DNA from: Naegleria gruberi
Lineage: Eukaryota
Assembly: GCA_000004985.1 (NCBI GenBank)
Contig: GG738863.1
DNA length: 64,000 nucleotides
Direction: 5' to 3' (one strand)
Shown here: positions 12,054 to 59,158 of the stretch, piece after piece
Layout: every line of letters starts with the position of its first letter
Position numbering within the stretch: position 1 is the first letter of the stretch
The notes under the pieces: generated by a model
The model's database searches: none
The model's input: only the letters and a program-made list of their open reading frames with translations
Told to the model about the DNA's origin: nothing
Position numbers and translations under genes: made by a program

Positions 12054-12103
12054 NNNNNNNNNNNNNNNNNNNNNNNNNNNNNNNNNNNNNNNNNNNNNNN
12101 NNN
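12054..12103. other. Assembly gap (50 N) inside or next to the Zn2Cys6 gene
   Basis: Run of n. Confidence 0.99.
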
Positions 12104-23600: not shown

Positions 23601-24991
23601 ATGTAAATTGCTTTGGTTCCACTTGAAAAAGCAACAGCAGTTGGGTTATTGAATTGAGTATTTGAATCTAAAACAAGGCCATCTCCTGCAAATCCTGCTT
23701 CTCCTTTACCGAATGAATATACTTGTGAATTCTTAATTTGTAATATTGAGTGAGTCAAACTTTGTGTTAAATAGAGTACATTCTGAACTTTTGTTACTCC
23801 ATAAGTTTTGGTCAATCTAATACTGAAAGGATCAGAGTTAAAAGATGGTTCAAAAGGAGATCCACAAAATCTTGAAATTGTACCAGTTTGAGAAAGCAAA
23901 CTAATTCTATCAGCCCTACTCTCGAGAATGTACCACTCTTCAGTGAATGGATTTCTCATAATTGAACGCGGTTCATATAATTGAGCTTGAGTTGCTTGAA
24001 TACTAATATTATCACTGGTGCCACCACCTGCAATTGTAGTTACCATTCCACTCAATGTGTCATATTTTCTAATTCTATTGTTACCAGTATCCGCAATGTA
24101 CAACTCAGTTTCCAATTTGTTCATCCAGAGTTTAGTTGGATTATTCAAAGTGGTTGAAAGTCCACTTGAATCAGAATCAAACCCAATATTTACAGTACCA
24201 ACTAGAGTTACAATAGTTCCGTTTGTCAAAATCTTTCGTATTCTGTTATTTCCGGAATCTGAAACAAAAATTTCACCACTCGATTGTGAAACATAGATTC
24301 CTTGAGGATAACTAAAAGAAGCATTCAAAGCAAGAATTCCATCTCCATAGAATGTATTGTTAGTATTTACATTTCCTGCTATTGTAGTAATAACATTAGT
24401 ATTGGTATCAATCTTTCGAATAACATGATTTCCGCTATCACACACATAAAGACACTCATCAAATGCTGAATAGAAAAGACCTGTAGGATTATTCAATAGA
24501 GCACTCTTTGCCAATGAATTATCTCCTGAGAAACCTGCCGTATCTGATCCAGCCACAAAAATCGAAGGGGAAAGAAAATCGATATTAGTGGCGTAAACAC
24601 CATTTCCAAAAGTATAGTAAATAAAATAGTCATTACCTGCAATTCCTTTGTATTCATAGTTGCCATTATCATTTTGGAAGATGGATATCTTTCCATCTGT
24701 CAATGACACCTTTCGAACAGCACGGCGATAATGGTCAGTGAAATAAAGACTATTCTTCTGCGATGAAAAGAACATATCGTACGGATACGCCAGAGTGGCA
24801 TCAATAGCCTCACCTCCATTTCCAAATTCATCAGAATATCCAGCAAAATTCGAAACTGTATATCTAGCAAACTTTGTTTCCGCACCACCAACCACTTCAA
24901 CAACAACAATGGCAACACACGACAATAACAGTACCAATAAAAGAACTGCACTACGTTGGCCAAAGAAAACCGCCCGGCAGTTGTTGTCCAT
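20613..24991 (-). CDS. Receptor-like protein kinase with an NHL-repeat (six-bladed beta-propeller type) ectodomain, an EGF-like Cys module, one TM and a cytoplasmic Ser/Thr-Tyr kinase domain. Four exons: 24991-22306, 22258-22142, 22094-21441, 21397-20613. Introns 22305-22259, 22141-22095, 21440-21398 (47, 47, 43 nt). ~1413 aa
   Basis: Signal peptide MDNNCRAVFFGQRSAVLLLVLLLSCVAIVVV. Repeated …ADTGNNRIRKY…, …SDSGNNRIRKI…, …ADTYNHRIRRI… NHL motifs. CTPICYGAVGSSSCGGPLQGSCIAPDTCQC. TM LIAVLVPVLVVLFITILIVVIV. Kinase GQGAFGSV|…K, HRDVKLSNIF, DFGLA, and HPNIL after the intron. Junction phases were checked by hand. Confidence 0.8.
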
Positions 24992-25501
24992 TTTTTTTGT
25001 TTTTCAGATAATTGTGGAATTTTTTAGGAGGGAACTGGAAGTTGGGATTCTCTGCCTTTTTCAGAAGATATTCTTTGTGTGTTTTGATTGGTTGATAGGG
25101 CCTGTTTGTTACAAACTAACATCAAGATATTTTAACTAGTTCTAGTTCAGTTTCGAATAAATGGTGGGAAACTGTAGTTGGGTTCATAAGAAACAGTAGA
25201 TGCTTTAGAGGTTAGATAATGGTTTTGAGTTTGATGGTTTGGTGGAGCATAAAGAACAGTTAGAACTGTTCCAAAACCTAAACTTGGTTTTGACCTTTCG
25301 AACAAATTGTTATTGATATTGGAAACAAATCGAATAATGGAAAGATTGAGAAGTGTAAATAATTGGAAATTGTTAGCAGATGGAATTAGAAGAGTTTGGT
25401 CTTTGTGGTGGTATCTATCATTGTTCATTCCATTTTTAGAAAAATCAAAGATTAGAATAAAATTTTGTAATGATTAATATTAGTATTCTTTAAATTAAAA
25501 A

Positions 25502-27382
25502 ATGTCTTTTCGATTGGCAAGAGCATCAGTAAGAATAGCAACAACTGAAATCAATTCCAAGTCATTTACTGTTAGAGACCAAGGAAAACGACTTTCGTCT
25601 TCGGCACAACAACTTTCGGAAAGTTTCCACACCTTTGATAAACCAATTCATTTACTTTCTCCTCTTCATAGATCAAATAGTCATCGATTCGTTCGCTACG
25701 ATTCATTCATTCACAATGAAGAATGCAGAAAAGTTTTCTTAGAGTTTCTTCAAATTTCCAAATGTGAAGAATTAGTTTTGTTTTGGGAAGAATTACATTC
25801 GTATAAGGAATGTTACAAACAATTCTATATGAAACTCAATAACAAACATGGAACTATCTATAGTCGAGGATTTGACCCGAAAAAGAAACAGAAATTGATT
25901 TTTAACTTGGTTGAGAGAGCAACATTTATTGTAAACACATACTTAACACCAAATAGTTTATTAGAATTGAATTTACATTCTAAACATAGAGTTCATGCTC
26001 CAAAAGTGATTGATTCCATTAATAATCGATTAAGAGTTGAGAAGGATGTATTCGAAATGATTAGAGAAACTCAGGAAGAAACTCAAGAATTATTGATAAT
26101 AATTTTGAATGAATTGAATCCAAAATACATTTTTGGGGATGTAGAAGCAACAGTCAACTTGGATTTGAAAGATCAATTGCAATCTCATTTTCTCAAATCA
26201 GAAATTGGCGCCAAATTTGTGAAATCCAAAGGTGAAGAATTTTTTAACAATCTTTCAAAAAGTAGAGAACAAGAACAGGTTGAAGATGAATTTAAGGATT
26301 TGGTCATGTCACTTAGCAGTTTGAAATCCAAGCTTTTTCAGAATCATATGATTTGCGACTCTTTGAAAAAGAATACGAAACTTGTCATGTTTAGTTCGAA
26401 TTATTCCAGTTGTATTTCAGATGATGATATTTACAGTACCATTTTATGGGAAAGAGATGATTCCGAATGGACTTCATTCCATAAGAATTATGATTCTTCT
26501 CACAAGTTTTCGTATAATTTGAGTTTATCCAAATCTTGGACTATTTCACAATCATTTCATTCAGATTTTGTAAATCCAAAACATGATCCAAGTACTTCCT
26601 CATTCAGAGTTGGTAGAGTTGACATGATTATTCCATTCGAAAGGGAGAAAGTCTTTCATGCATTTTCACAACCAGATATTCGAAAGTACATTGAAGAGGC
26701 TTTGGATATTTCCTTACTTGAATCGTATACTCAAGACTCTTTGGATGATTTAGATGATGCATCTGATTGTGTGGTAGTGTCTGGTGATGATTTCTCTGAA
26801 ATTATCGATGTTTCGAATGATAGAAAGCCGAAAGGTTTATTCACATCGAAATGCTCAATGACTGTACAGAATGGAACTTCCATCTTGCAAAGATTCGAAA
26901 AAAAGAAGGTTTACGATATGAATCATACCACTTTATATGATTCAGAGCTAGATTGCATCATTCATGTGTCCAAGTCAATTGTCAAGGATTCAAAATCTGA
27001 TAATCTTGGATTTTCACACTTTTTCTTTTACAGAGATAATGAATCTGGATCTGATTCCACCTACATGGTACATCTATTCAATCTGGAAAAGAAACGTATC
27101 GATTCCAAATTTAAAATGAAACAAACCATCAAGTCACGTGTCAAACGAGTGAAACAAACTTTCCATAATTATTTCTCCAAACATTCTGACGTTTCCGACC
27201 TACTTCGAACCAATGATCCTCTCTACATTGTAAATACCTTACTATTGAACAAATTTTCCAATCCACATCGTTCATGGTATCGAGAATTATTGAAAGAAAC
27301 AAAAAGTATTAATTTTCAAAAAGAATTGAAATCAAATTTTACGTTGAGTTGTGAATCTTTGAAAAATAATACGAGTTTTTAA
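25502..27382 (+). CDS. RGS (regulator of G-protein signalling) domain-containing protein (626 aa)
   Basis: RYDSFIHNEECRKVFLEFLQISKCEELVLFWEEL…FIVNTYLTPNSLLELNL resembles the RGS box. The rest is low-complexity. Single exon. Confidence 0.5.
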   Translation: MSFRLARASVRIATTEINSKSFTVRDQGKRLSSSAQQLSESFHTFDKPIHLLSPLHRSNSHRFVRYDSFIHNEECRKVFLEFLQISKCEELVLFWEELHSYKECYKQFYMKLNNKHGTIYSRGFDPKKKQKLIFNLVERATFIVNTYLTPNSLLELNLHSKHRVHAPKVIDSINNRLRVEKDVFEMIRETQEETQELLIIILNELNPKYIFGDVEATVNLDLKDQLQSHFLKSEIGAKFVKSKGEEFFNNLSKSREQEQVEDEFKDLVMSLSSLKSKLFQNHMICDSLKKNTKLVMFSSNYSSCISDDDIYSTILWERDDSEWTSFHKNYDSSHKFSYNLSLSKSWTISQSFHSDFVNPKHDPSTSSFRVGRVDMIIPFEREKVFHAFSQPDIRKYIEEALDISLLESYTQDSLDDLDDASDCVVVSGDDFSEIIDVSNDRKPKGLFTSKCSMTVQNGTSILQRFEKKKVYDMNHTTLYDSELDCIIHVSKSIVKDSKSDNLGFSHFFFYRDNESGSDSTYMVHLFNLEKKRIDSKFKMKQTIKSRVKRVKQTFHNYFSKHSDVSDLLRTNDPLYIVNTLLLNKFSNPHRSWYRELLKETKSINFQKELKSNFTLSCESLKNNTSF

Positions 27383-27579
27383 TTTTATCTCTTTTAATAA
27401 AATAAAAATGTAAATAATAATGATTTCCAAATTAAGAATATATGTTTGAGTATTCGAAACAATTCATAAAGAAAACCATTTAACTGTAGTATTTACAACA
27501 AACTAACTACAGTTAAACGATCAAATTCCTAATTGGACGACTGTCAATCTCTTCATTATTTCTGTAACAAAACCTTCAC

Positions 27580-28795
27580 ATGTCAAAACGCTTGAAAAAA
27601 ATGCGTCCCTATCTCAAGCATTTGTATTCCTCATCACCCAAGAAATCATCTTCAAATAACAAATCAGAAAAGATTAATACACCTTCGAATAGTTTATCCA
27701 TAGTTTCGTCTAAAAAAACTTCGTCACCCAAGAAGGTTGTTATTATTGCTGAATCAGAAACGGAGAAGGAGGAGCACAAATCAAATATCGATAGGGCAAG
27801 TGATCATAAACTCATCAAACCTTCATCATTTAGAATTAAAAAGGGAATTATTCAAGATTCGAATAGAGATGATTTCCTACGAATTCATTTCGACAAGTTT
27901 CGAGAAGGTAAATTAATTTTAATTCTCAATCATTCATTCATCAAATATTGAAACAGTTCAACCTGAAGGAGAAACAAAATCATCCAATGAAACTTTATCC
28001 GAAACTTCCTTAACCAGAACAAAGAGTTCTCCAAATATGGAGAAATCAAAAACTCAACAAAAAACCGAAACAAAACGAAACCACCATCACAATCAACATC
28101 GAAATTCACTTTCCCACCAAAAAACAATTCGTCCGCTCCAACCACAAGATGAAGATAAATTAGATCTTCCATCATGTATAATGAATTCTCTATATTTGGG
28201 AGATTGTTTCCAAGCAACTAATAAGAAATCAATTGACCATTTGAAAATTACACACATTGTTAATTGTACAAAGAATGTTGAAAACAAATTTGAAAGAAAT
28301 CATGAAATTTCAGATCATTCCAAATTGGAACATGTTCAAAGTATTGATTTGGACGTTTCTGAAATTAATTTAGAAGATGAATGTGTTAAAAATATGGAAA
28401 ATGTTAAATTAAAAGATAATAGACAAGTGAAATATTTGAGAATTCCAATTGAAGATGTACATACTGAGGATATTTATCAATATTTTCAAGAGGCACATAA
28501 TTTTATTGAAGAGGCAATGTTTGAATGTGGAATTGTACTTGTACATTGTGCTGCTGGAGTTTCTAGAAGTTCTACTATTGTAATTTCACATGTTATGAAA
28601 AAGATGGGCCTTTCTTTCATGTTTGCTTTCAATATGGTGAAGAGAAGAAGGAGAATGATCATGCCAAATGAAGGATTTTTCAATCAATTATTGGAATGGG
28701 AAAGAAAACTAAATGGTGGTAAATCAATTTCTCAATTTAAAGATGGATACATGGATTTATTGGAAATTGAACAGCAAATGTATAGTTCCTACTAA
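27580..28795 (+). CDS. Dual-specificity protein phosphatase, two exons (27580-27907, 27957-28795; intron 27908-27956, 49 nt), ~388 aa
   Basis: Catalytic loop VHCAAGVSRSSTIV (HCx5R[ST]). S-rich N-terminal exon. GTAAAT…ACAG intron, and the phases close. Confidence 0.8.
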
Positions 28796-29000
28796 TTTAC
28801 TCTATCCATAGAGTGTCTATCGTTTGATAGAATAATTCCATATCAAGAGATTGTCTACTTTCTAGTCAATCACCAACTATTCCAAATTACCATTTTTGGA
28901 AAATTCTATAATTGTAAATAACAATGAACAATTCATTCACCAAATTGTATTTAACAACTGAAAATTATCTTACATTCACAATCAAAACAAAAATCAAAAC

Positions 29001-29942
29001 ATGAAAACTTTACTTTTCATTGCAATTTGTCTCTTAATTACTTGGTTGACTTTCATCAAGGCCAACAATGTTGTAATCAACAATAACCAAGAAAATGCAG
29101 CACCAACCGAAGCTTTGAAACAAAAGAGAGGTAATCCAATGCCATACTATTCACAACGTCCACACACTGATTGTTATACTTACAAACATGGTAAACCATG
29201 TCCAAAACCATCACCTTCTCCACTTCCATCTTTTGGTATTCCTGGAGGTTCTTCACCAATTGATGTGTACGTTCCAACATCTGCTTCATGTGCAAATGCA
29301 TTCGCATCCATTTCTTCATACACTTTCGAATCTGGTAATCTAGTTCAATATAGACAATGTAGATCTTTAGTTTTATGTTTACAAAGATGGGTTGAACAAT
29401 TGCTTCAACTTATTCTTGCTGGATTGACTCCTGGAGCTACATTTTCCAATACTCTTTCAAGTGTAGTGGTTGAATTGAATACTGCATTTGGTTATGTCAA
29501 TTCAAATCTTGGTGGAATTTTATCCGAATCTGGAACAACAGTTAATCCAGTTACACCACCTAATTCTCCATGTACATTAGAATTTGCACCTGTCTTGGCA
29601 GCTAATGGTCTTGTCTATCCAAATGAATGTTCAGCTCGTGTTGCAGGAGCTCCAAATCCATACGTCAATGTCACCTTAAATGAAGGAGCTACTGCTAGTG
29701 CAGGTGCTTATTCATTGAGCGATGTTACCAATCCTAGAATTGCATTGACAGTCTTATACACTAAATATGTTGTCAAAATTTTAGGTTTCATTCAAACTTA
29801 TTTGAATGAGTGCGTCTTATCAACTGAGAGTAGAGTTTTCACAAGTGGAATTTCCTCATTGAATACTGCAATTGGATTGATTTGGAGTGGAGATTACAAT
29901 GCAGCAAAGAATTTGGTACTCGATTTATCAAGAAATGTTTAA
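29001..29942 (+). CDS. Secreted protein (313 aa) with a signal peptide and a Kazal-like Cys motif
   Basis: MKTLLFIAICLLITWLTFIKA. CTLEFAPVLAANGLVYPNECSARVAG resembles the Kazal C…PVCG.dG.TY.N.C spacing. Confidence 0.4.
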   Translation: MKTLLFIAICLLITWLTFIKANNVVINNNQENAAPTEALKQKRGNPMPYYSQRPHTDCYTYKHGKPCPKPSPSPLPSFGIPGGSSPIDVYVPTSASCANAFASISSYTFESGNLVQYRQCRSLVLCLQRWVEQLLQLILAGLTPGATFSNTLSSVVVELNTAFGYVNSNLGGILSESGTTVNPVTPPNSPCTLEFAPVLAANGLVYPNECSARVAGAPNPYVNVTLNEGATASAGAYSLSDVTNPRIALTVLYTKYVVKILGFIQTYLNECVLSTESRVFTSGISSLNTAIGLIWSGDYNAAKNLVLDLSRNV

Positions 29943-44001: not shown

Positions 44002-44109
44002 TATTAACTTTTGAATATTAAACATCATCATTTTCATAATCAAGTAAAGTAAATATTAAATAAAATTAAATTTTTGAAAATAATAAAAAATTCCGTGATC
44101 CGAAAAAAA

Positions 44110-46250
44110 ATGGTTAAAATTCAAACTCTTATCAAGAATCGATTATCGCAATTTTTTAAGCAACTCGCAACGAGTAGTACCATCATTGTTGGTTATTTGA
44201 TCGGATTGAATAAGGTTGATCAACAAAATGATGAGCAAGTTATTCTCAACTTTATGAAGAGTCTTTCAAATTTTGATCAAGATGAATTGGATTTAATGCA
44301 GCAAGTGATTATTCCGAATGGAATGGACATGTTGGGAATTTATATTACTGCTAATAGTGTTGGAAAATTGTTGGGAGAGGCTGCGTTGAGTGATTTGGTT
44401 CAAAATTTGCCTCTATTGATAAGTAAACAATTCAACAAATTGATCGGAAGAGAATTATTAATAATGGTTGGTGGAGCATCATCAATTGATTTGTATAGAG
44501 TGAGTAAGGACAATAATTGTACAATGGAAAGTTTTGAAGAGTTTTCCGAATTGAATATTATTGGAGATAGAGGAGATTTGTCCAATTTAAAGGAAGATCA
44601 ATTATCTTGTGTGATTGCTCGTGTTCATTGCGATTTGAACATTGTCTATCAAGTAGATTCCAGTAACAAGTCAGAAAATGACTCTACAGTAGAGAGCTTT
44701 AAACGTCAAACTGACAGATTTATTCAAACTTTGAAAAAGCCAGAAAATGTAATATTGAAAACTCTTCCAGAACAATCAGAAACAGCCACCCCTTCTCGTA
44801 AGAATAAGAATGCTCAACAAGCATCCAATAATTTGGTAGCCAGTGTGGAGATTCATGACTCTGCAGAGACTCTCTCACAAAATGTGGAAACCATCTTGCC
44901 AGAAAAACTCTCCCTCATCGATCAATCTACACAACATCTCAAAGTTGATGCCAATTTTAACAAGAAGGAAACTACCAAGAATAAGAAGAAAAAGCTCCCA
45001 AAACAAACCCTTGGAGAATTCCTTAAAACTACAGAAAAATTGAACGATGCCTCACAAACCATGACAACCATTTCTAAAATTCTGCACTTGAATTGTTTTG
45101 TCAGCATGGCTCCAAATCAATATAGTACCGAGCAAGGAATTGTCATTTCAACAGACAAAAAACTCACAAATTGTACCATCAGCTTGGAATCTTCATCTTA
45201 TATTCCAGTAAGTGCTTTAAAGAAATCACTCTCCCTTGGAAGAATTCGTGAAATTGTCATTGAAGGATTAATCAAACAACTCGTCTATATTAGTAACAAT
45301 ATTGGAAAGGGATTCCTTGTTACAAGTGTTGGAGCTAACAAGTCTTTAAAGAATATTGGATTTTACCAATTCCTTCCAAAGGATTATCCTCACATTTTCA
45401 CATGTTGCTACCCATTCTACAGTGAAGATCTCGTTTTTGAACAACGAAATGAACAATATTGCATCAAATTGAGAGAGGAATATCACAAGAGACTCTACTT
45501 TTCACTCAAGCAACCATTCATTAGAACTAATCAGGCATTGGCTTTTGGACGCTCTTCCAAATCCAAAGTTAGTGATTTTAACAAGAAGATCTTGAATGTT
45601 CACAATTATGTTGGCTATCCTTCCACAATCAAATCATCAGGAGCCAATAATTTACATCTTGTTCGTGGCGACTATTTATATGCTCACTATTGCCAAGATA
45701 AATTCAATGATGAAGGATGGGGATGTGCCTACAGAAGTCTTCAAACACTTATTTCACATGCTCAATATCATTCTGGTTCTCTCGTTGTCAACTTGCCAAC
45801 CCATGATGAAATTCAAAAGTGTCTAGTAGATTGTGGAGATAAGCAAAGTCCTTCTTGGGCTCTTCTCAATGGATTGGCGCTTTTGAAAATACCATTGTTC
45901 TGGAAAAGTGGTGCGGTATTCAAAGTAAAGTTCTGTATGTAAATAGAGGTGATGAAATGAATTCACATGCAAGAGCCATCGCCAATCACTTTGATGTTAA
46001 TGGTAGTCCAATTATGATAGGAGGTGGTGTTCTTGCATACACCATGTTGGGAATTGAATTTGATGAAATGACTGGAGAGGTATCCTACCTCATTTTGGAT
46101 CCTCATTTCACTGGTAGTATTAGTGACCCAGAATATTTGGAAGATGTCATTTCAGGAGGATGGTGCGGATGGAAGACCAGAGAACAAGTATTCAAAGATA
46201 GTGTCTTTTACAATTTGTGTATGCCTCAATTAACAGCAGATTCTGTTTAA
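44110..46250 (+). CDS. UFSP-like (Ufm1-specific protease, peptidase C78) gene with a -1 frameshift near 45850 that splits it into two overlapping ORFs (44074-45942 and 45855-46250)
   Basis: N-terminal MPN-like IVGYLIGLNK…MLGIYIT. The catalytic region CQDKFNDEGWGCAYRSLQTL sits in frame A. …SSQWIGAFENTIVL…GSPIMIGGGVLAYTMLGIEFDEMTGEVSYLILDPHFTG…GGWCGWK…YNLC sits in frame B. No GT…AG intron fits the junction. Confidence 0.65.
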
Positions 46251-46277
46251 ATAAATCAGTTTACAAAAAATAATTTA

Positions 46278-49038
46278 TTACAATTTCATAAAGTGTTTAC
46301 CTGTGACTGGACAAACGTTCATGTTTTTAGCACAAATATAATGTGTAACGACACCATTAGGATAACAAACAAAGGCACTCATACCTAATTTCTTATTGCA
46401 CACTGCACAAGTTCTATCTGGTTTAACCTTTACAACTCTCTTTCTTTCCTTAATGACTTCTTCGTGAACTTGGAGATTCTCAGATCGATTGATATTTTTC
46501 ATAATTTGAGCACGTCTCTTTTGTTCCGTATGGCACCTCAGAGTTGCTTCAAAGTACTTCATCAAATCAGATATTGGAACATTTTCTGGGAGCAATTTAA
46601 TTGCCTTGATCAAGTCAATCTTTGAAAAGTGACGTTCCAATAATCCAATAGCATCTTCAAAGAATAAATTGTTTTCTGTACTGGCACTTTGCTTTAAAAT
46701 CATATTGAGAAGAATGATAAATATTTCCCTACTTTCTTCACTTCCATCTGGATTATAGTGTTGCTCGCAATATTTCTCAGCCTTATCCATACTTTCCAAT
46801 TTGGTAACATAGATAGTCAGAGCTTGGGAGTGTCTATTAATCTTACTCAACAAAATAGCTCTCTCTTCGTACAGGGAATCGAATGGGAATCTCGAAAGCA
46901 TCTTTTCAGAGTGGTAAAAAGTAGAGTGGGTCAAAAAGTCGTTCATTCTACGCTTGACATCCTTAACTGGTTGAAGGAGTCCAGGAATACTATCTTCCTC
47001 ATAGTTGGATGCTGATGTTGAGTATTTGGTCACATATTCCAAATAGTACAATAAAAGTTGATTGTGAAGGTTTGGATCCACAGATTTTTCAACCTTAATC
47101 AAGTGTTCCAAATAGGCAATCTTCATGGCCAGAGCATGATCAAACAAATCCAAGTGAGATAAAATTTCATTTACACTAATTGGACAATTTGGTACTTGGA
47201 AAATCTTTAAACCACGAAGTGGCTCAGCACTGAGTACCCACTTTGAGAATTCTAAAATGTACTGTTGTCCTTCTCCAACCTGTTGTAATTCCTTCAAATA
47301 GTTAATAGTTGGCATGACACCAATCAAGTCGGTGTAAATAGATGTTGCTGATGACTTGTCTCCCAATAATTTCAACAATTCAAGAGCTCTATCGTGCAAC
47401 CCTTTGGTCTTGTAGAAGAGAACCAACTCTCTAAACTTTTGATGGGAGTGGAGGGTCTTTTGACTGTCCATAATGTTACAATGATTTGGTTGGGTGATAA
47501 AATCTTCAACGTGAGGGTCATTAGTGTATAAAAGTGCCTTCAATAATGCTGTATCAACTGCCTCAGCTTCATCTAGAGCTTGCTCATTCAAATCCTTTTC
47601 TGTTGTTCTTCTGTGAAGCAAGTATTGAATCAGGGCTTGAAGGGCCTTATTTCTTTGTTCAATATCCTTTAAAAAGTGATCAATCTTTCGTTGCTCTTCA
47701 GAAGTGTAAGGGAGGGAGAATTTAAATGAAGATTTTGGTGGTAACAAATCAGGGAAGAGTGAAATAATCATACGTGGATCATCTTTAGTCTTATCAAAAT
47801 GTTCCATTGCCTTGTCAAATTCACCTTTGGCAAACAAGTGAAAACCAAATTGTGTGTGAATGGAACTAACTCTCCAATCTTCAATCTTATATCTGGTATT
47901 CTCTACAGTATTACAGAGATGGAGAGCCAATTCAAATTGTTGATTGGATAAGAGTTCTCCAGCTTGCAAATCAAATTGTTTCATTACCATAACATAGATG
48001 GAACTCTTTGAAGCGAGGAAAATTCTATTTTCTGGATCAATGGTGTCATCTCTGTCGAGTTCATTTCTTACCTTGAATCCAACACCCATACCATGATCCA
48101 TATTTTCTGGATGATCCAAATCAATGAAATTCTGTTGACTTGTTGTAATGATATCCTTGAGTGGAAGACTCTGAATGAAAGTATCCTTTTTCACAGTGGT
48201 ACTCAAAATTCTAACCTCAACAAAAACAGAGAGTGGTGCAATGAGGTATGGTTTCAAATAGCCAATCATGTTTGGAGCTTCACTCCATCCAATACCATGT
48301 GATCGTGAAGGTTTACCAGAAAAGTTGATGGTCACACCAATTCCATTCAAAACCACAATAGTTTCATTGGGAAGTGATAATCCAAGAGTATTTTGTTGTG
48401 AAACACCTGTATCGAAAAGTTTTTGTGGCATGGCAGATGGCTTTAATACATCAATTAATGAATATTCCTTTTTGAAACCAACACAGAGCTTGTCGCCACT
48501 CCAATTCAAAGATTTGGCAGCATCTGGCAGAACCAATTCCTGTTGATATTTAAATTTAGATTCCTTACTACCATATTCAAAGATTGAAATCTTTTTCTTT
48601 GATGCAACTGCCATTGTAAATTCACCATTGTGCTTTTTCAGAGCAAAAAACATGCATCCCTTCAATTGATTTTGCTATCAATTTAATTACACTCAAAATA
48701 TTCCAAATTATTCTTACCTTTAAATTCTTGAGTGTATCAATTTCACTCAACATTCCGAGAGTATATACTTTAATAAATCCATCTGTCAAACAAATCAACA
48801 TTCCCAATTCTGGAACTGAGCACATTTGAGTGATTGGCTTTTTGCTAAATTGTTTCTTTTGACTGTCCAGAGCACAAGTAAACTTTTCCTTGTTTGCCTT
48901 TTTATCATATCGAATATTGTAAAGGGATAAGGTACCATCAGTGGTGGCCACAAAAAGAGTATTGCACCACACACACAATGATTCTACCTTTCCCAATCCA
49001 TCCAATAATTGGAAATATTCAAAGGCTGTATGTCCCAT
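46278..49038 (-). CDS. Vam6/Vps39/TRAP1-like tethering-complex subunit (CNH domain + helical repeats + C-terminal zinc-binding tail). Two exons: 49038-48718 and 48674-46278. Intron 48717-48675 (43 nt; alternative acceptor at 48660), ~905 aa
   Basis: N-terminal MGHTAFEYFQLLDGLGKVESLCVWCNTLFVATTDGTLSLY (CNH-like). C-terminal CAVCNKKLGMSAFVCYPNGVVTHYICAKN. Donor GTAAGA; the 43-nt choice matches the local intron size. Confidence 0.7.
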
Positions 49039-49929: not shown

Positions 49930-51009
49930 ATGCTGTCAGATTCTAATTCCTTCATGATGGAAGATCAACAAATGCCTCCTTCTTCGTCATCTTCTTCTGC
50001 TTCTTCTTCCCCTGCTCCTTCCTCTCCACTTTCACCTCATCATACAGCAACTTTTGAAACAAACATGCTTGATGAATATGGAAGCAGTATCAATCACCCT
50101 TCTAAGCCACTTAACACAACAAATACAGCAACAACAACACTAAATAATGCATCCAACAATAATATAGAACACATGAGATCAGCTGGCAATGATGATTCTT
50201 TACCACCTATTGCTTCCATACCACCAAACAATTCAACTTCTCGTGTTGTTAATGTTGGGCCAATTATGAATGCAATTCAAGCTTATAGTGGTAATAATGG
50301 TAATAGTACACTTGTTGATAATGTAAATGTCAGAATATCCTCCGCCTCATCTTCATGTTCAACCATTTCAGATCATTCTATGAATAATACAATGATTAAT
50401 GGACAAGCACCAAAACCACTTAATGATTTTGAAAATGTATTTGCTAGTTTCAAGAAGAGAAATAGAGAACAATACGAAAATAATAATCAATCCTCGTCAT
50501 CATCTGATCCAGTTTCATATATTAGAGATTTGGAAGATAAAATTGATTTTATGGCACAATTAGTCACTATTCAATCTGCCAAAATGAGAAAGATGGAAAT
50601 GAGATTGAAAAAATTGGAAAACTTACTTCCTCAATCAGGGGATGAATTTGTAAATTCAGGCAATCTTCATCGTATGCCACATAGTGATGAGTTATCATCA
50701 ATTAGTGATGATATACCAACATTTTCAGCACCAAAGAAGGAAAAGGGTAATAGACAACCTAATGCCTATAATATTTTCATGAAGGGAGAAATTCAACGTA
50801 TTCGAACAACTCACACAGAATTAACACAAAAACAGGCATTTAAACTTGCTGCCAATAATTGGACTTTGAAGAAATCTGAAATCCTTGGAGCTTCAAATGG
50901 TTCACAGAAAAAACCAGACGACAGAACTAGCACAGTAAGCACACCTAGTGATACTACCATGGCAGATTCACTTTCTGAAACACCACTCAATCAACTTGAC
51001 GAAAAGTAA
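49930..51009 (+). CDS. HMG-box-like / YABBY-like DNA-binding domain protein (359 aa) with a coiled-coil and an S/N-rich N-terminus
   Basis: PKKEKGNRQPNAYNIFMKGEIQRIRTTHTELTQKQAFKLAANNW aligns by eye with the YABBY consensus PSAYNRFIKEEIQRIKA.NPDISHREAFS.AAKNW and with HMG boxes. Coiled-coil IRDLEDKIDFMAQLVTIQSAKMRKMEMRLKKLENLL. Confidence 0.55.
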   Translation: MLSDSNSFMMEDQQMPPSSSSSSASSSPAPSSPLSPHHTATFETNMLDEYGSSINHPSKPLNTTNTATTTLNNASNNNIEHMRSAGNDDSLPPIASIPPNNSTSRVVNVGPIMNAIQAYSGNNGNSTLVDNVNVRISSASSSCSTISDHSMNNTMINGQAPKPLNDFENVFASFKKRNREQYENNNQSSSSSDPVSYIRDLEDKIDFMAQLVTIQSAKMRKMEMRLKKLENLLPQSGDEFVNSGNLHRMPHSDELSSISDDIPTFSAPKKEKGNRQPNAYNIFMKGEIQRIRTTHTELTQKQAFKLAANNWTLKKSEILGASNGSQKKPDDRTSTVSTPSDTTMADSLSETPLNQLDEK

Positions 51010-51261
51010 AGATTTAATTTTTCAAATATGATGACCCATTCATCAGATTTACTATTATCAAGAGTTGACCAACCTGGCCATTCAAAATTTCTATTTCTTC
51101 TAGGAAAGGATGTGGATTGCCTCTTGGATTTGATGAGAAAAAGGTCTTTTTAGATTTTTCAAAGAAAAAGAATCTTCACAACTCATGTTTCCTAATACCA
51201 ACAACATTCAATAATTTATTATCATTTTGCAAAACAGAAATATACTTTAACAGATAATAAT

Positions 51262-52783
51262 ATGGCATTCGGATCGTGCGNNNNNNNNNNNNNNNNNNNN
51301 NNNNNNNNNNNNNNNNNNNNNNNNNNNNNNNNNNNNNNNNNNNNNNNNNNNNNNNNNNNNNNNNNNNNNNNNNNNNNNNNNNNNNNNNNNNNNNNNNNNN
51401 NNNNNNNNNNNNNNNNNNNNNNNNNNNNNNNNNNNNNNNNNNNNNNNNNNNNNNNNNNNNNNNNNNNNNNNNNNNNNNNNNNNNNNNNNNNNNNNNNNNN
51501 NNNNNNNNNNNNNNNNNNNNNNNNNNNNNNNNNNNNNNNNNNNNNNNNNNNNNNNNNNNNNNNNNNNNNNNNNNNNNNNNNNNNNNNNNNNNNNNNNNNN
51601 NNNNNNNNNNNNNNNNNNNNNNNNNNNNNNNNNNNNNNNNNNNNNNNNNNNNNNNNNNNNNNNNNNNNNNNNNNNNNNNNNNNNNNNNNNNNNNNNNNNN
51701 NNNNNNNNNNNNNNNNNNNNNNNNNNNNNNNNNNNNNNNNNNNNNNNNNNNNNNNNNNNNNNNNNNNNNNNNNNNNNNNNNNNNNNNNNNNNNNNNNNNN
51801 NNNNNNNNNNNNNNNNNNNNNNNNNNNNNNNNNNNNNNNNNNNNNNNNNNNNNNNNNNNNNNNNNNNNNNNNNNNNNNNNNNNNNNNNNNNNNNNNNNNN
51901 NNNNNNNNNNNNNNNNNNNNNNNNNNNNNNNNNNNNNNNNNNNNNNNNNNNNNNNNNNNNNNNNNNNNNNNNNNNNNNNNNNNNNNNNNNNNNNNNNNNN
52001 NNNNNNNNNNNNNNNNNNNNNNNNNNNNNNNNNNNNNNNNNNNNNNNNNNNNNNNNNNNNNNNNNNNNNNNNNNNNNNNNNNNNNNNNNNNNNNNNNATT
52101 TATTGTGGAATGATTATTTGAATTCTGTTCAACAATTTCAATTGGAACCCAATAATACTCATCATTATCATCCATTGAAAACATTCAAGGCGAGAGTGAA
52201 GAATTTCTCTGGAGTTTTACTTTCCTCTCCAACAATTTCAATGAGTTTCATATATAATCAGGTATTTTGGATTACACCTTATGGAAAGGGTGATTCGTCC
52301 AATAATTTTGAATATTATAGGGAGAGAATTGAGAGAGCTATTTCAAATTTCAATTTGCATGTGTTAAAGTTTTTGGTTGTGCCTGTTTTACGGATATTCC
52401 CTTCACTTCCATTGTATCCACCATTTGGAATACCGTGTGCTCAACCAAAATGCAGAGAACGTTTCCAAAATGATGCTCTACTTTACAAGGGCTACTGGAA
52501 GAGTTCAACATCTATTTCCATTTTGGAAGAGATGAGGAGTGTGAAAATTTTACTGGCCTCCTTTAATCCTGACCAATCTCAATCCACACAGAACGTACCC
52601 ACACTCATTGTATACGGAGAATCTGATAATTTCTTCTCGTGGGACGAAACTAAACATCTCTTCTCCAAACATTTTCAAAATATAACATGGAAATCATATC
52701 CCAATCTTAAACACGACGTTTTCCATGAGGATGTTAAAGAACCAGTGTGCAGAGATTTATACAACCTTGTTGTAAGAAACTGA
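51262..52783 (+). CDS. Alpha/beta-hydrolase (MGLL/lysophospholipase-like) gene interrupted by an 817-N gap; only the C-terminal ~225 aa (52098-52783) and a possible start (51262 MAFGSC) are visible
   Basis: C-terminal PTLIVYGESDNFFSWDETKHLF…NLKHDVFHE (Asp/His region of hydrolase_4). The frame across the gap is unknown. Confidence 0.45.
51281..52097. other. Assembly gap (817 N)
   Basis: Run of n. Confidence 0.99.
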
Positions 52784-53132
52784 AACTCATTATAATCCTC
52801 AGTAATGATAATGACTGACGACTGATTGGTTTTTATCACACAATTGAATATTAAACCTATTCAATATATTTATACTGTCCTCACTACAGCCACACCTCAA
52901 AATCTGCTTAATTGTTCTTATTTGTGACTCGAATCCACATTTTGAAACTGCAAACTTTGAAACATTTTTTAGATCTACTAGAATCTTTCAACGAACTCTT
53001 TCTGAACATTTAAATGTAACAAAACAGGAAGCTGATCATAATGTAACTTTCCAGTAGTAACGAAAATAATCTTTTTGTTCTTCTCTTCTAGTATAAAAAA
53101 CGCGGTCGGTTCCATTGTGTGAAAAAACTTGT

Positions 53133-55046
53133 ATGCCATCAATTGTTAATCTCCAAAAGAAAATGAGAACTACACATTTCAAACATACCAGAAGAGTTGT
53201 TCAGTTATCGATGGTGATGAACAACAAGGAGAGTACAGTAGCTGCTTTGTTGAAGAGCAAGCATACGGGTTCATTGGTTTCGAATAGTGTGAGAAACAAG
53301 ATGGAAATCAGTCATGCCAATCTATCACCAATTAAACCATACATGCAAGAGGAAGATGTTGAATACCAACAACACGAACAACATCAAGTAGCAGTGTTAC
53401 ACGAAAATATGTACTTACATTTAGGTAACTTTCGAATGGAAAGAGCTTTAGAAGAATGGTCAAACATCTTTTCTCCAGATCAAATCTGTACTGATCCAAA
53501 CATGCTAAAGACATTACTACAAGATTGCTCTGCCATGGAACAAGTCAACCAAGTAAGAGCTGTCATTTATCCAACTGATAAAGAACAAATTGTGAAACTT
53601 GTCAAGATTTCCAACAAATTCAAAATTCCAATCTATCCAGTGAGTACAGGTAATAACTGGGGATATGGCAGTATGAATCCACCTCCTCAACATGACGTGT
53701 CAACCAACTCTGTTCGAGAAGGAATCATCTTGAACATGTCAAGAATGACAGAAATCAAATTTGACATCAAAAGTGGTGTAGTAACAGTTCAACCAGGAGT
53801 AACCCAACGTTTACTCAATCAATATCTTAAAGACAATAACCTCTCCTATCTCATACCTGTCACTGGTGGTGGACCTGACACAAGTCTACTGGGAAATGCC
53901 CTAGAGAGAGGTTATGGAATTACTCCACATGCTGATCACTTTTCTGCTTGTATGTCTCTAGAGGCAATTCTACCAAATGGAGAAGTTTACAATTCAATGC
54001 TTCATCAAATGGGAGCTCCACAAATAGATAAACTCTATAAATGGGGAACAGGTCCGTATGTTTGTGGAATTTTCACTCAGGGTAATTTTGGTATTGTAAC
54101 AGAGATGAGTATTGCGTTGGCTACTAGACCTGAAAGGGTGGAGGCATTCTTTTTTGCAGTGGATGAGTTGGATGTTGGAGTTCAGAAAGTTAAGGAGATT
54201 TTAACCAAAATTGGAAATGTTACTGGTTCCATTAATTTGATGAATAATAGAAGGATGATTTCAATGACACTTCCTTATCCGAAAGAAAAGATTGGGAAGG
54301 ATCAGGTAATTCCTGACGAAATGCTTTCGAATATGCAAAAAAGTATTGGAGTTTCGAACTGGAATGGTGCGGGAACCATTTATGGAAGTGAACAAGTTGT
54401 GAAAGCTGCCAAGAAGGAAATCAAAAAGATTTTGAAACAATCCACTAGAAAAATTATCTTTCTCAATCCAAAAGAAACCTCAACTTACTGTTCCATTCTA
54501 GATAAGGTTAGTTTCGTCCAGAATATTCCAATTGTCAAAGCTCTGTACGCTGTCAATGAAAGCTTAAAATTAATGAATGGAGAACCAAGTCAAGTTGCTC
54601 TTCCATTGGCTTATTGGAAAGCTGGGAAGAAACCAACAGAGAAACCAATGAATCCATCACAGGATGGTTGCGGACTTTTATGGTTTGCTCCATTGGTTCC
54701 ACTTCATCCAGAAAATGTTCAGGAATTTGTAGAGTTGGCTCAACGTGTCTGTATTAAGCATGGTATTGAACCACTCATCACTTTGACAAGTATGAACGAC
54801 AGGGCATGTGACAGCACTATTCCAATATTATTTGACAGGTCAGATCCAGAACAAGTCAAAAAAGCTCATCAATGTTTTGATGAATTATTTGAAGAAGGAT
54901 CCAAGTTGGGTTATGTACCTTATAGATTAAATGTAAATGCTATGCGAAAGGTTTCAGATAGAAAGGCAGTTCCATCCATTTTGAAATCTTTAAAAACTGC
55001 AATCGATCCAAATAATATCATTGCTCCAGGAAGATATGGTTTGTAA
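53133..55046 (+). CDS. FAD-linked oxidase (PCMH-type FAD-binding domain; vanillyl-alcohol-oxidase / D-lactate-dehydrogenase superfamily), ~637 aa
   Basis: RAVIYPTDKEQIVKLVKISNKFKIPIYPVSTGNNWGYGS…VTVQPGVTQRLLNQYLKD…IPVTGGGPDTSLLGNALERGYG. Start uncertain: ATGs at 53133 or 53163, and the track start at 53115 is a TTG. Confidence 0.7.
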   Translation: MPSIVNLQKKMRTTHFKHTRRVVQLSMVMNNKESTVAALLKSKHTGSLVSNSVRNKMEISHANLSPIKPYMQEEDVEYQQHEQHQVAVLHENMYLHLGNFRMERALEEWSNIFSPDQICTDPNMLKTLLQDCSAMEQVNQVRAVIYPTDKEQIVKLVKISNKFKIPIYPVSTGNNWGYGSMNPPPQHDVSTNSVREGIILNMSRMTEIKFDIKSGVVTVQPGVTQRLLNQYLKDNNLSYLIPVTGGGPDTSLLGNALERGYGITPHADHFSACMSLEAILPNGEVYNSMLHQMGAPQIDKLYKWGTGPYVCGIFTQGNFGIVTEMSIALATRPERVEAFFFAVDELDVGVQKVKEILTKIGNVTGSINLMNNRRMISMTLPYPKEKIGKDQVIPDEMLSNMQKSIGVSNWNGAGTIYGSEQVVKAAKKEIKKILKQSTRKIIFLNPKETSTYCSILDKVSFVQNIPIVKALYAVNESLKLMNGEPSQVALPLAYWKAGKKPTEKPMNPSQDGCGLLWFAPLVPLHPENVQEFVELAQRVCIKHGIEPLITLTSMNDRACDSTIPILFDRSDPEQVKKAHQCFDELFEEGSKLGYVPYRLNVNAMRKVSDRKAVPSILKSLKTAIDPNNIIAPGRYGL

Positions 55047-55140
55047 ATAGATTTAAATCTCATAAAACCAAAAAACTAATGGTTAACAAACCGTTCACTT
55101 GTATTCGAAAGTTGAAATAATATGAAATTATCATAAAAAG

Positions 55141-55212
55141 AGAGGTATCGGCGATTCGAACCCCGGACCTGAAGATGTGCTGTCTACCGCTCTCCCACTG
55201 AGCTAATACCCC
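55141..55212 (-). tRNA. tRNA-like gene, closest to tRNA-Cys(GCA), with non-canonical features; possibly a pseudogene
   Basis: Minus strand GGGGTATTAGCTCAGTGGGAGAGCG…GGTTCGAATC…ATACCTCT. Acceptor stem 7 bp with one G-U. A-box and B-box are present, and a T5 run follows immediately after the 3' end. BUT the anticodon loop reads CAGCACA (A at 33, C at 37), and there are a T·T mismatch in the anticodon stem and a G·G mismatch in the T stem. Confidence 0.55.
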
Positions 55213-55291: not shown

Positions 55292-57115
55292 ATGAAACCA
55301 CACAACAATAAGCGAACCATGAAACCAATTCGACCTCTTCGACCAGCCCGAGGTAACAAAAACACTAATTCCGAACACACTTCCGACCAACAACAACACA
55401 ACAAAACTAAACAAACCATTCGTCTCCCAACCAATCATCGAACTCTAATCAAGGCAGCAATCATTGGAAAGCAAGGAAGTCAAATTAAATTAATTTCCGA
55501 ACTGAGTCAGGGATGTAGAATTAAGGTCGAGGAGTCGAGAGTTGTAATTTATGCTGCAAATAATAATCAAAAAGTTGCTGGTAATGATTCTTTATCATCG
55601 AGTGGTAATAATTTGCAAATTGCAGTGAATTTGGTTCAATCAATTATTAATAATGTATTGTGTGTGTTTGAGCATCCGAATGTCATTTGTTCAATCTATG
55701 AATGTAATGGTGAAGAAGAGAGGATGAAATTAACAAGATTTGAAACTCCAATTGTTCTTGTTTCAAATAATCATAATGATGATGATAAAGAAGAAGGAGA
55801 ACAGAGAGAAAAAGTAAAACATCATCAGAATTATTATCGACTTGCTCTTGCTTCGGATGATAATGATGAACTGGCTGATGAGGAAGTGAAAGATCTTCAA
55901 TCAACAATACCTTCTTCTTCTTCTTCAATGGAATTCTCTAATAATGGTTCTTCTGCATCACATGAAGAGCAATTGCTATCTAATAGTAGTAGTAATGGTG
56001 GGGATAAAACTAGTGATACATCCTCATCCTCATCATCATCATTATTGGTGGAGAAGAGATTGGTCAAATCGGATCATCAATTATATTCACAGAGAAAGGA
56101 GAGACAATTAATTTCAGAGGGATTATCATCTGCTGTATCGAACTATTTGAAATTGGATCAATTTGAAGGAATGGAGAGAAAGCTTCTTATTAAGGTTGGA
56201 TTGGGAAGAAAGGTCTTTTATGATGCCAAGAGAAATGTGGAAATGACAAGTAGTATTTTGAATAGAGTTTATAATTTTGAATCGTTCTCCAAGTTGGATA
56301 TTGGTTATGGAAAGGATTTAAAATCTTCATTTAGATTGGAAATGGGAGGAGATTTTGCATTGAATTTGAAAGAATACTTGTTGAAGAATAATTGGAAACA
56401 CACAGAAACAATCAAGAGTGCCACATGTTATGTGGTGAAATTAATGCAAGGAATTATGGGAAGTGCTGGTGGTAAGAGAATGAGTTTCAAAGTAGTTCCC
56501 AATGGATCATTGGCTAAAATTGGAAAATTAAAGATTGCACTGGATAAGCTTTCCTATCTGGACTTTTGTAACTTGGAGGAGAATTGCCCAGATTTGAGAT
56601 TGAGATTTGAAACTGAACAGTATTCGAGAGAATCAACCGATGAAGAATTCAACAAATTCATTTCAGCGCTCAAGTTCAATGAGAAGGATCAAGTCGACAT
56701 GTCTGGAGTTCCTCAAGAATTGTTAGATATTTTCAGAATTGACAGTGTTAGAAATAAGGTTAAGGAAATATACTGCTTGAATGATTTAAAGATTACGATC
56801 AATAAGATTCTCTCTAACGGTAGAGGGTGGTATGAAATTTCCATGTCTTCATTACAACCTTACAATGAATTATCATCTTCTGAGGATGTTGTAAACGTAT
56901 TGAGTACAATGAGAAGTGTATTGAATGGTGTTTGTGGACCAAGAATACATTGTCCAATAATTTCGAATATAGAAAATGTTAACACCACAACCAAGAAGGA
57001 AACAAAAACATCTGCAAAACCTTCCAAAGATTCAACACCTTACTGGACTGTTTTAGGTGTAGCTGCTTTCTGCGCTGCTGTGGGATTTGGATTGAACAAG
57101 TTAATCCACAAGTAA
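55292..57115 (+). CDS. KH-domain protein with a C-terminal transmembrane anchor (607 aa)
   Basis: IRLPTNHRTLIKAAIIGKQGSQIKLISELSQGCRIKV (type-I KH). Acidic S-rich middle. C-terminal YWTVLGVAAFCAAVGFGLNKLIHK. Confidence 0.5.
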   Translation: MKPHNNKRTMKPIRPLRPARGNKNTNSEHTSDQQQHNKTKQTIRLPTNHRTLIKAAIIGKQGSQIKLISELSQGCRIKVEESRVVIYAANNNQKVAGNDSLSSSGNNLQIAVNLVQSIINNVLCVFEHPNVICSIYECNGEEERMKLTRFETPIVLVSNNHNDDDKEEGEQREKVKHHQNYYRLALASDDNDELADEEVKDLQSTIPSSSSSMEFSNNGSSASHEEQLLSNSSSNGGDKTSDTSSSSSSSLLVEKRLVKSDHQLYSQRKERQLISEGLSSAVSNYLKLDQFEGMERKLLIKVGLGRKVFYDAKRNVEMTSSILNRVYNFESFSKLDIGYGKDLKSSFRLEMGGDFALNLKEYLLKNNWKHTETIKSATCYVVKLMQGIMGSAGGKRMSFKVVPNGSLAKIGKLKIALDKLSYLDFCNLEENCPDLRLRFETEQYSRESTDEEFNKFISALKFNEKDQVDMSGVPQELLDIFRIDSVRNKVKEIYCLNDLKITINKILSNGRGWYEISMSSLQPYNELSSSEDVVNVLSTMRSVLNGVCGPRIHCPIISNIENVNTTTKKETKTSAKPSKDSTPYWTVLGVAAFCAAVGFGLNKLIHK

Positions 57116-57450: not shown

Positions 57451-59158
57451 ATGATTAAAACACTTTCATTCATACTACTAGTGTTATTATCACTCTATTC
57501 TATTATATCTTTCATTAGAGCTCAAGAAAGATTCATTAATGTCAAGTATTCAATTAAAACTTTGATTGGAACTGGTGCTGGAATATTTAACTTGGATGGG
57601 TTGACTGGATTGGCTACTAATATTAATTCACCTATTGGCGTGTTTTATGAAGAGAGTAGTGGTGATTTGAATTTCTCACATACATGTAAGTTTCATACTT
57701 TCGAATAATAATTTTCATGTTATTCGAAACAACAGTAAACAATACAGTAAGAGTTTTGAGAAACTCATCNNNNNNNNNNNNNNNNNNNNNNNNNNNNNNN
57801 NNNNNNNNNNNNNNNNNNNNNNNNNNNNNNNNNNNNNNNNNNNNNNNNNNNNNNNNNNNNNNNNNNNNNNNNNNNNNNNNNNNNNNNNNNNNNNNNNNNN
57901 NNNNNNNNNNNNNNNNNNNNNNNNNNNNNNNNNNNNNNNNNNNNNNNNNNNNNNNNNNNNNNNNNNNNNNNNNNNNNNNNNNNNNNNNNNNNNNNNNNNN
58001 NNNNNNNNNNNNNNNNNNNNNNNNNNNNNNNNNNNNNNNNNNNNNNNNNNNNNNNNNNNNNNNNNNNNNNNNNNNNNNNNNNNNNNNNNNNNNNNNNNNN
58101 NNNNNNNNNNNNNNNNNNNNNNNNNNNNNNNNNNNNNNNNNNNNNNNNNNNNNNNNNNNNNNNNNNNNNNNNNNNNNNNNNNNNNNNNNNNNNNNNNNNN
58201 NNNNNNNNNNNNNNNNNNNNNNNNNNNNNNNNNNNNNNNNNNNNNNNNNNNNNNNNNNNNNNNNNNNNNNNNNNNNNNNNNNNNNNNNNNNNNNNNNNNN
58301 NNNNNNNNNNNNNNNNNNNNNNNNNNNNNNNNNNNNNNNNNNNNNNNNNNNNNNNNNNNNNNNNATTCGAAAGTTTGTGGAACTAATGGAAAATGTCTGA
58401 CAATTGACAAGTGTGTTTGTAAAGATGGATTTTATGGTCTTGATTGTTCACTTCCTATTTGTTTGAAAGCAGAAAATGGAAAGTGTGCTAATGATACAAC
58501 AGGTGTAACTGTAGAAAATATTGAAACAAGTCAATTGTCAAACAAATCAATTTCTCTTAGTTCAGGAAATTTGACAGAAAGTTCAGTAGTTTCAGTTTCC
58601 TTTCCTTCTGATTTTTCTCATTATATTTCCAATCAAACAACCTTCTCATCAGTTTCTCTACTCACAGCGGTTTCTACAAGCGGAAACAATTTGACAAACT
58701 CAAATTCTGCTTTCTCCATAGTTTCGAATATAATCACAATTTCACTTGCCTTAACAAATGGAAAAAAGATTCCAGTTTCTAATTTGGAAAATCCTATACA
58801 AATCTCATTCCAAAAACCAACAAGTTATTCTGGAAATTTGACATGCATGTACTTGGACGAATTGACCAATGAATGGAAATCAGATGGTGTGAAAACTGTT
58901 ATTGAACCATTAACAGTCAATTGTCTGACTTCTCATTTAACTTCCTTCTCGGTAATTGATATTAATCTCAGGAAGGAAATTGGAAAACCAAAAGAATCAC
59001 CGAGTGTCAGTAATCAAACAATTTCACAAAGTCAACTCTCTCAAGAAGCTATCATTGCAATCTCAGTATCAATTGCTGGAAGCTTCATTGTTTGTTGTGT
59101 TGTTGCAATAATCCTGTCAGCTGTTATCTGCTTAATAAGAAGAAAATCGAAGAAGTAA
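57451..59158 (+). CDS. Single-pass membrane protein with a signal peptide, NHL-type repeats, an EGF-like module, an S/T-rich stalk, a GPS (GAIN-type autoproteolysis) motif and a TM + RRKSKK tail. Exon 1 57451-57685, intron 57686-57735 (50 nt), exon 2 from 57736, interrupted by a 595-N gap, resuming 58365-59158
   Basis: [24 protein letters not shown]. After the intron, LNNTVRVLRNSS is an NHL motif like the GNNRIRKI of the kinase ectodomain. CGTNGKCLTIDKCVCKDGFYGLDCSLPIC is EGF-like. GNLTCMYLDELTNEWKSDGVKTV…TVNCLTSHLTSFSVI matches the GPS consensus (W…G…C.C.HLT.F.V). TM IIAISVSIAGSFIVCCVVAIILSAVICLI. Confidence 0.65.
57770..58364. other. Assembly gap (595 N) inside the NHL-EGF-GPS gene
   Basis: Run of n. 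Confidence 0.99.

Follow-up and report, generated by a model that had tools for sequence, protein, structure and literature searches.

The 64,000-nt stretch of Naegleria gruberi DNA analysed here, referred to as the window, carries a real tRNA-Cys(GCA)-like gene of aberrant sequence. The gene most likely belongs to the nuclear tRNA-Cys(GCA) family of N. gruberi as a paralogue in decay, one that has kept its Pol III signals and can probably still be transcribed. Four lesions set it apart: A33 in the place of U33, C37 in the place of a purine, and the mismatched pairs U28.U42 in the anticodon stem and G52.G62 in the T stem. Apart from these, the molecule is a textbook tRNA; since everything else about it is canonical, it is either a very young pseudogene or a gene still under some constraint. 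The locus is thus an ordinary one and not a new kind of RNA, being most likely a single decaying copy among the approximately 900 tRNA genes of its genome.

Detection of the locus

ARAGORN reports a tRNA-Cys(gca) at 55140-55212 on the minus strand of the 64-kb window, and the Rfam model RF00005 matches 55141-55212 of the same strand over model positions 1-71 of 71, with a score of 41.6 bits and an E-value of 2.1e-05 for the 64-kb window. The gathering score of RF00005 is 29, so the match lies within the tRNA family. An earlier note, made from the letters of the window, had placed an aberrant tRNA-Cys(GCA)-like gene at 55141-55212 and left the strand unstated; both programs agree with that position and assign the gene to the minus strand. 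It is the only match in the window, as neither ARAGORN nor RF00005 found a second tRNA there. A chance origin is excluded by the covariance-model E-value of 2e-05 together with a 17-mer D-arm motif (TAGCTCAGTGGGAGAGC), which is matched exactly at 55189-55205 and for which shuffles of the window give an expectation of 0.01 occurrences. The flanking genes identify the window as nuclear DNA of N. gruberi, so that the locus belongs to the nuclear genome of a heterolobosean amoeba; it occupies a 245-nt spacer between two protein genes. The features concerned, in window coordinates, are the following.

53115-55046, plus strand: FAD-binding PCMH-type oxidase NAEGRDRAFT_48420 (100% identity to the N. 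gruberi protein, 467,654-bp scaffold)
55135-55139, minus strand: TTTTT, candidate Pol III terminator (seen in the sequence), with one C (55140) between U73 and the T run
55141-55212, minus strand: tRNA-Cys(GCA)-like gene, 72 nt (ARAGORN, Rfam RF00005 and the sequence), with its 5' end at 55212 and its discriminator U73 at 55141
55152-55162, minus strand: B-box-type element GGTTCGAATCG (tRNA positions 52-62; motif search and ARAGORN), with the core GGTTCGAATC at 55162-55153
55172-55186, minus strand: anticodon stem and loop with the U28.U42 mismatch (55186/55172; Infernal and ARAGORN)
55176-55182, minus strand: anticodon loop CAGCACA (C32 A33 G34 C35 A36 C37 A38; ARAGORN, Infernal and the sequence)
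55194-55205, minus strand: A-box-type element TAGCUCAGUGGG = TAGCTCAGTGGG (tRNA positions 8-20; exact motif match), putative promoter
55292-57115, plus strand: KH-domain 'predicted protein' NAEGRDRAFT_66562 (matched to the N. gruberi protein)

The stop codon of the oxidase gene lies 95 nt from the 3' end of the tRNA, the two genes being convergent, while the ATG of the KH-domain gene lies 80 nt from the tRNA 5' end, these two being divergent.

Cloverleaf anatomy and Pol III signals

Divided into its structural segments and read from the 5' end, the RNA is GGGGUAU UA GCUC AGUGGGA GAGC G GUAGA CAGCACA UCUUC AGGUC CGGGG UUCGAAU CGCCG AUACCUC U. In the ARAGORN cloverleaf the acceptor stem has 7 bp with one wobble pair (G2.U71), and the D stem has 4 bp; the D arm is canonical both there and in the Infernal alignment. 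The T loop (UUCGAAU) and the discriminator U73 (55141) are intact, the variable loop has 5 nt (AGGUC), and the bases that make the tertiary contacts are all present in the sequence (U8, A14, G15-C48, G18G19, U54-A58, C56 and G53-C61). The assignment to tRNA-Cys follows from the anticodon GCA (55180-55178), which sits in a 7-nt loop, and from U73 after the acceptor stem. U73 is an identity element of cysteinyl-tRNA synthetase (CysRS).

The lesions are equally plain. In the anticodon loop, position 33 (55181), normally U, is A, and position 37 (55177), normally a purine, is C; the same A33/C37 combination is found in a second N. gruberi lineage. In the T stem, G52 and G62 (55162/55152) are left unpaired by both ARAGORN and Infernal. 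U33 is the U-turn nucleotide, and U33 and purine 37 are near-universal in elongator tRNAs; Cys tRNAs carry m1G37, a modification that Trm5/TrmD cannot form on C37. In these respects the earlier note had described the molecule accurately: its clean acceptor stem, its loop CAGCACA with A33 and C37, and one mismatch in each of the anticodon and T stems all reappear in the program-drawn structures, and the covariance-model fold revealed no canonical pairing that the note had missed, Infernal and ARAGORN drawing the same mismatches. Shifted anticodons, namely Ala-AGC (-1) and Val-CAC (+1), were tried by hand and rejected, as neither yields a paired anticodon stem.

The A box is an internal promoter element of type 2 Pol III genes, and the locus has the full set of signals of such a gene: an A box, a B box and a downstream oligo-T. 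Its B box fits the B-box consensus, GGTTCGANTCC, at 10 of 11 positions, the exception being G62 (55152), which replaces the usual C and is also the mismatch partner of G52 in the T stem. The D-arm with its A-box, the B-box and the T5 terminator that had been noticed before are thus all in place, the terminator lying one base past the 3' end. Because all of these Pol III signals remain, the gene is probably still transcribed.

A second TTCGAAT lies 45 nt downstream (55103-55109) and was considered as an 'ex-B box'-like motif; it was rejected as not significant, the heptamer occurring 30 times in the window. This number is itself high (10.6 copies are expected, and 0 of 100 shuffles reach 30), and 16 of the 30 copies fall within approximately 5 kb, at 24415-29331, which suggests a repetitive coding region or a repeat region.

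Degree of damage

The extent of the damage was gauged against nine matched controls from a JGI metagenome scan, all tRNAs with an identical 24-nt 5' half (eight Val-CAC and one Ala-UGC). The scan with this 5' half matched only tRNA-Val(CAC) and one tRNA-Ala(UGC), and no Cys gene; the 5' half is therefore generic. With RF00005 the locus scores 41.6 bits versus 65.6-70 bits for the six controls scored, a gap of 24-28 bits. ARAGORN scoring, which the earlier note had proposed as a check, returns a tRNA-Cys with a score of 105.8, below the 119.6-121.0 of all nine controls. Scores below 55 bits have been taken to suggest pseudogenes; where a conserved position such as U33 is altered, further point mutations and a low score generally come with it, and a pseudogene is the most likely explanation; the sole U33 exception noted is C33 in initiator tRNA (PMC9023262). 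For this threshold, which applies to tRNAscan-SE, the RF00005 and ARAGORN scores serve here as proxies.

Repair of the lesions in silico traces this deficit to its source. Single repairs raise the ARAGORN score by 5.3 (A33U), 1.5 (C37G), 4.0 (U42A) and 5.4 (G62C), and repair of all four positions together brings it to 122.0; the four lesions therefore account for the whole ARAGORN deficit. Folding with ViennaRNA leads to a similar picture. With U28.U42 and G52.G62 mismatched, the stems are not fully paired and the cloverleaf is not competitive: the minimum-energy structure of the native sequence, at -17.5 kcal/mol, is something other than a cloverleaf and does not exceed shuffled sequence in stability (z=+0.7), and the cloverleaf with both mismatched pairs open reaches -10.5 kcal/mol. 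The combined repair U42A + G62C makes the cloverleaf the minimum-energy fold (-24.9 kcal/mol), for which both mismatches need to be repaired. A point that counts against a pseudogene is that ARAGORN reports the gene at default thresholds and raises no flag under -rp.

These observations also bear on the idea that the gene encodes a functional but unusual tRNA-Cys isodecoder, one that is charged and takes part in translation, if perhaps with low efficiency or only in special circumstances. Such a role is quite unlikely. It is true that the identity elements for CysRS (U73 and G34-C35-A36) are present, that the acceptor, D and T arms, the tertiary contacts, the promoter boxes and the terminator are intact, that no base differs in the second N. 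gruberi lineage, and that ARAGORN calls the gene at default settings. However, the two positions lost in the anticodon loop are near-universal and C37 makes m1G37 impossible, the stem mismatches keep the cloverleaf from being the minimum-energy fold, and the score lies 24-28 bits below the matched controls. The search for relatives of the loop argues in the same direction: a tRNA with a CAGCACA loop in the same frame gave 0 matches in IMG/VR, and in GTDB (596 Gb of prokaryotic genomes) the CAGCACA-loop class gave 10 chance matches, none of them within a tRNA.

Identity in a second N. gruberi lineage

An independent ENA metagenome assembly (ERZ929261, run ERR1078381, PRJEB11402; contigs L022, L026 and L027) holds DNA of a second N. 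gruberi lineage, which shares 97-99% identity with the window (approximately 1-3% diverged). Two of its contigs, L026 (ending at 55162) and L027 (beginning at 55150), jointly span 72 of the 72 tRNA positions without a single difference and include all four lesions. Both contigs end inside the T arm of the tRNA, and their overlap is only 13 nt (GGCGATTCGAACC). Elsewhere the two lineages do differ: there are 5 differences in the 79-nt 5' flank and 0 in the 94-nt 3' flank, and the oxidase gene shows 23 differences in 1,932 nt. The KH-domain gene of the second lineage carries in-frame indels.

The presence of the lesions in both lineages means that they predate the lineage split. It also disposes of the suspicion that errors of sequencing or assembly, in a draft scaffold with N gaps, had produced the odd bases. 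This suspicion is a natural one, given five N runs in the window, of which two come within 4 kb of the locus; yet L026 and L027 are identical to the window over the 72 positions while differing from it elsewhere, and this agreement between independent assemblies rules out sequencing errors. The probability of an error is practically nil. No specific literature was found on Naegleria nuclear tRNA-Cys, on A33 tRNAs or on PRJEB11402.

The unchanged sequence could be taken further, as a sign that the locus is a tRNA-derived element kept for a non-decoding role, whether as a site bound by TFIIIC/Pol III that acts on the promoter of its neighbour, as the source of a small tRNA-like RNA or fragment, or as a decoy whose changed anticodon loop lets it escape anticodon-loop nucleases. 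In favour of this, the decoding positions have gone but the promoter boxes and the terminator have stayed. The gene also sits just upstream of the KH-domain gene, in the 245-nt spacer and in divergent orientation, with the ATG only 80 nt off. For phage tRNAs, anticodon-loop mutations that evade tRNA-targeting nucleases are reported (eLife 2023, e85183, as cited in PMC11702301). However, five random changes in a 245-nt spacer would miss the tRNA with a probability of (173/245)^5 = 0.18, which leaves the two-lineage comparison powerless as a test of constraint, and a recently inactivated gene would keep its A and B boxes as well. Moreover, the loci fetched from N. fowleri, N. lovaniensis and Willaertia hold no counterpart. 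A non-decoding role is therefore unlikely.

A more specific version of retention on purpose would be a stable, non-decoding tRNA-Cys-derived RNA in which A33/C37 serve a purpose of their own, for example in a nuclease-resistant decoy, in a precursor of fragments or in a molecule that donates cysteine outside translation; alternatively, TFIIIC bound at the locus might act on the KH-domain gene. Such a reading agrees with the intact Pol III signals, the tertiary contacts and the identity across two lineages; we consider it highly doubtful.

Neighbouring genes and the locus in relatives

The comparison with sister species relied on the genes around the tRNA. Homologues of the oxidase in N. lovaniensis (50% identity) and N. 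fowleri (47% identity) lie in other gene neighbourhoods, with no tRNA, and no homologue of the KH-domain neighbour was found outside N. gruberi. The arrangement of Vps39 with Peptidase_C78 is common to N. gruberi (44074-48665 of the window) and N. fowleri (L028, VFQX01000030.1), the other flank of Vps39 being rearranged; at the N. fowleri Vps39 locus the gene content on the tRNA side differs, and no tRNA occurs within +-10 kb. The Vps39 locus of Willaertia is not syntenic and has no counterpart tRNA. The DNA sampled from N. fowleri, N. lovaniensis and Willaertia, 89.5 kb in total, contained no tRNA. The sister-species loci compared thus give no sign of a deep conservation of the locus. The Vps39-Peptidase_C78 pair is also found on two metagenomic Naegleria-like contigs (L024 and L025; 74% nucleotide identity).

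Outside Naegleria, the oxidase finds its best matches, at approximately 47-51% identity, among '4-cresol dehydrogenase'-like proteins from methanotrophic Gammaproteobacteria (Methylomonas, Methylomarinum and Methylobacter). Its N. lovaniensis and N. fowleri homologues are no closer than these. The gene is a candidate for a bacterial origin by horizontal transfer into Naegleria.

A probable decaying copy in a genome rich in tRNA genes

For N. gruberi, 924 tRNAscan-SE detections have been published, 41 of them flagged as pseudogenes and 84% unclustered (Bermudez-Santana et al., PMC2888827, supplement 2). In a 41-Mb genome, these 924 detections amount to approximately 1 tDNA per 44 kb and, on average, to approximately 19 genes per anticodon family. 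At such a density a tDNA in a window of 64 kb comes as no surprise, and with families of this size a single broken Cys copy should be affordable and is to be expected. Judging from the published gene counts, canonical Cys-GCA copies elsewhere in the genome presumably carry cysteine decoding.

The locus shares much with eukaryotic cytosolic tRNA-Cys(GCA): the anticodon GCA, U73, the length of 72 nt, the 5-nt variable loop, G15-C48, the A and B boxes and the oligo-T. It departs from these tRNAs in having A33 for U33, C37 for G37, U28.U42 and G52.G62. When set beside the metazoan Cys-GCA signature (PMC9023262, Table 1), its acceptor strand GGGGUAU shares the GGGG start of GGGGRUA and its D stem GCUC is identical, whereas its anticodon stem GUAGA and its T stem CGGGG differ from the metazoan WUYGA and CCCGG; these signatures are defined on animals, and the differences may reflect the distance between Heterolobosea and animals. 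The locus also resembles low-scoring tRNA genes and tRNA pseudogenes of the kind flagged by tRNAscan-SE (41 in N. gruberi, PMC2888827): it has several point mutations at conserved loop positions and in stems, a low covariance-model score, and the standing of a singleton locus in a genome of many redundant tDNAs. Unlike such pseudogenes, the locus is only lightly damaged, with four substitutions, no truncation or indel, and Pol III signals that have been kept.

Among the origins that the earlier note had listed, that of a decaying tRNA gene has the most in its favour and that of a SINE seed finds no support; the regulatory RNA and the unusual functional tRNA that the note also offered keep a low probability. 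Decay fits best because of the low model scores, the destabilised cloverleaf, the redundancy of tRNA genes in the host and the lack of a counterpart in the sister-species loci examined. That the locus is the head of a tRNA-derived SINE, or a copy of some other dispersed retroelement, has very little probability. A count of 924 tDNAs is unusually high for a 41-Mb genome, and elsewhere such counts can reflect tRNA-derived repeats; the locus, being tRNA-like with internal Pol III boxes, also resembles a SINE head. Against this, only 41 of the 924 hits are flagged as pseudogenes, and the locus itself lacks what a SINE would add to a tRNA: its T5 terminator adjoins the tRNA after one base, there is no tRNA-unrelated body and no A-rich or simple-repeat tail, target-site duplications are lacking (no flanking direct repeat rises above AT-rich noise), and the window contains no second copy or fragment.

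For a degenerating tRNA-Cys gene of this architecture, we infer the following course of transcription, processing, decay and poor decoding. TFIIIC can probably still bind to the A box, which is intact, and to the B box, which is nearly so, and Pol III would then produce a short precursor ending at the T5 run. The intact acceptor/T domain, the D arm and the tertiary contacts may allow the ends to be processed by RNase P, RNase Z and the CCA-adding enzyme. As G52.G62 and U28.U42 destabilise the cloverleaf, most transcripts would be expected to misfold or to be cleared by tRNA quality control. With U73 and the anticodon GCA both in place, cysteinyl-tRNA synthetase might still charge any molecule that survived to maturity. 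Decoding of UGU/UGC by such a molecule would presumably be poor: the U-turn nucleotide is lost with A33, and at C37 there is no purine (m1G37) to stack on the helix of codon and anticodon.

The practical consequence concerns the annotation of N. gruberi: the locus should not be counted as a working Cys decoder where gene copy numbers of tRNAs enter an analysis, e.g. of codon adaptation or of virus-host codon usage. A lightly damaged tRNA gene that keeps all of its Pol III signals also offers a natural test case for tRNA quality control, or for extra-translational functions of tDNAs, in Heterolobosea, should tRNA-seq data be gathered from them. Its importance for biology at large is small, the genome being already known for hundreds of tDNAs and dozens of pseudogenes.

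Other features of the window

The N runs of the window, which are assembly gaps, include 1129-2450, 12054-12103, 51281-52097 and 57770-58364, and open reading frames called across such runs (e.g. 51222-52184 and 57715-58410) are artefacts. An open reading frame on the plus strand at 49930-51009 gives a significant match to the Pfam YABBY C-terminal (HMG-like) domain (E=9e-13), and contig L022 of the ENA assembly carries this gene too. The YABBY family is usually regarded as plant-specific. Two (CCCAAA)n arrays of telomere type, in the same orientation and with approximately 60 units each, occupy positions 3-360, at the very start of the window, and 2451-2826, right after the N gap at 1129-2450; the sequences that follow them (867-1126 and 3030-3289) are approximately 88% alike. 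These arrays, which lie approximately 55 kb away from the tRNA, resemble a chromosome end with a related subtelomere scaffolded alongside it, either allelic or an assembly artefact.
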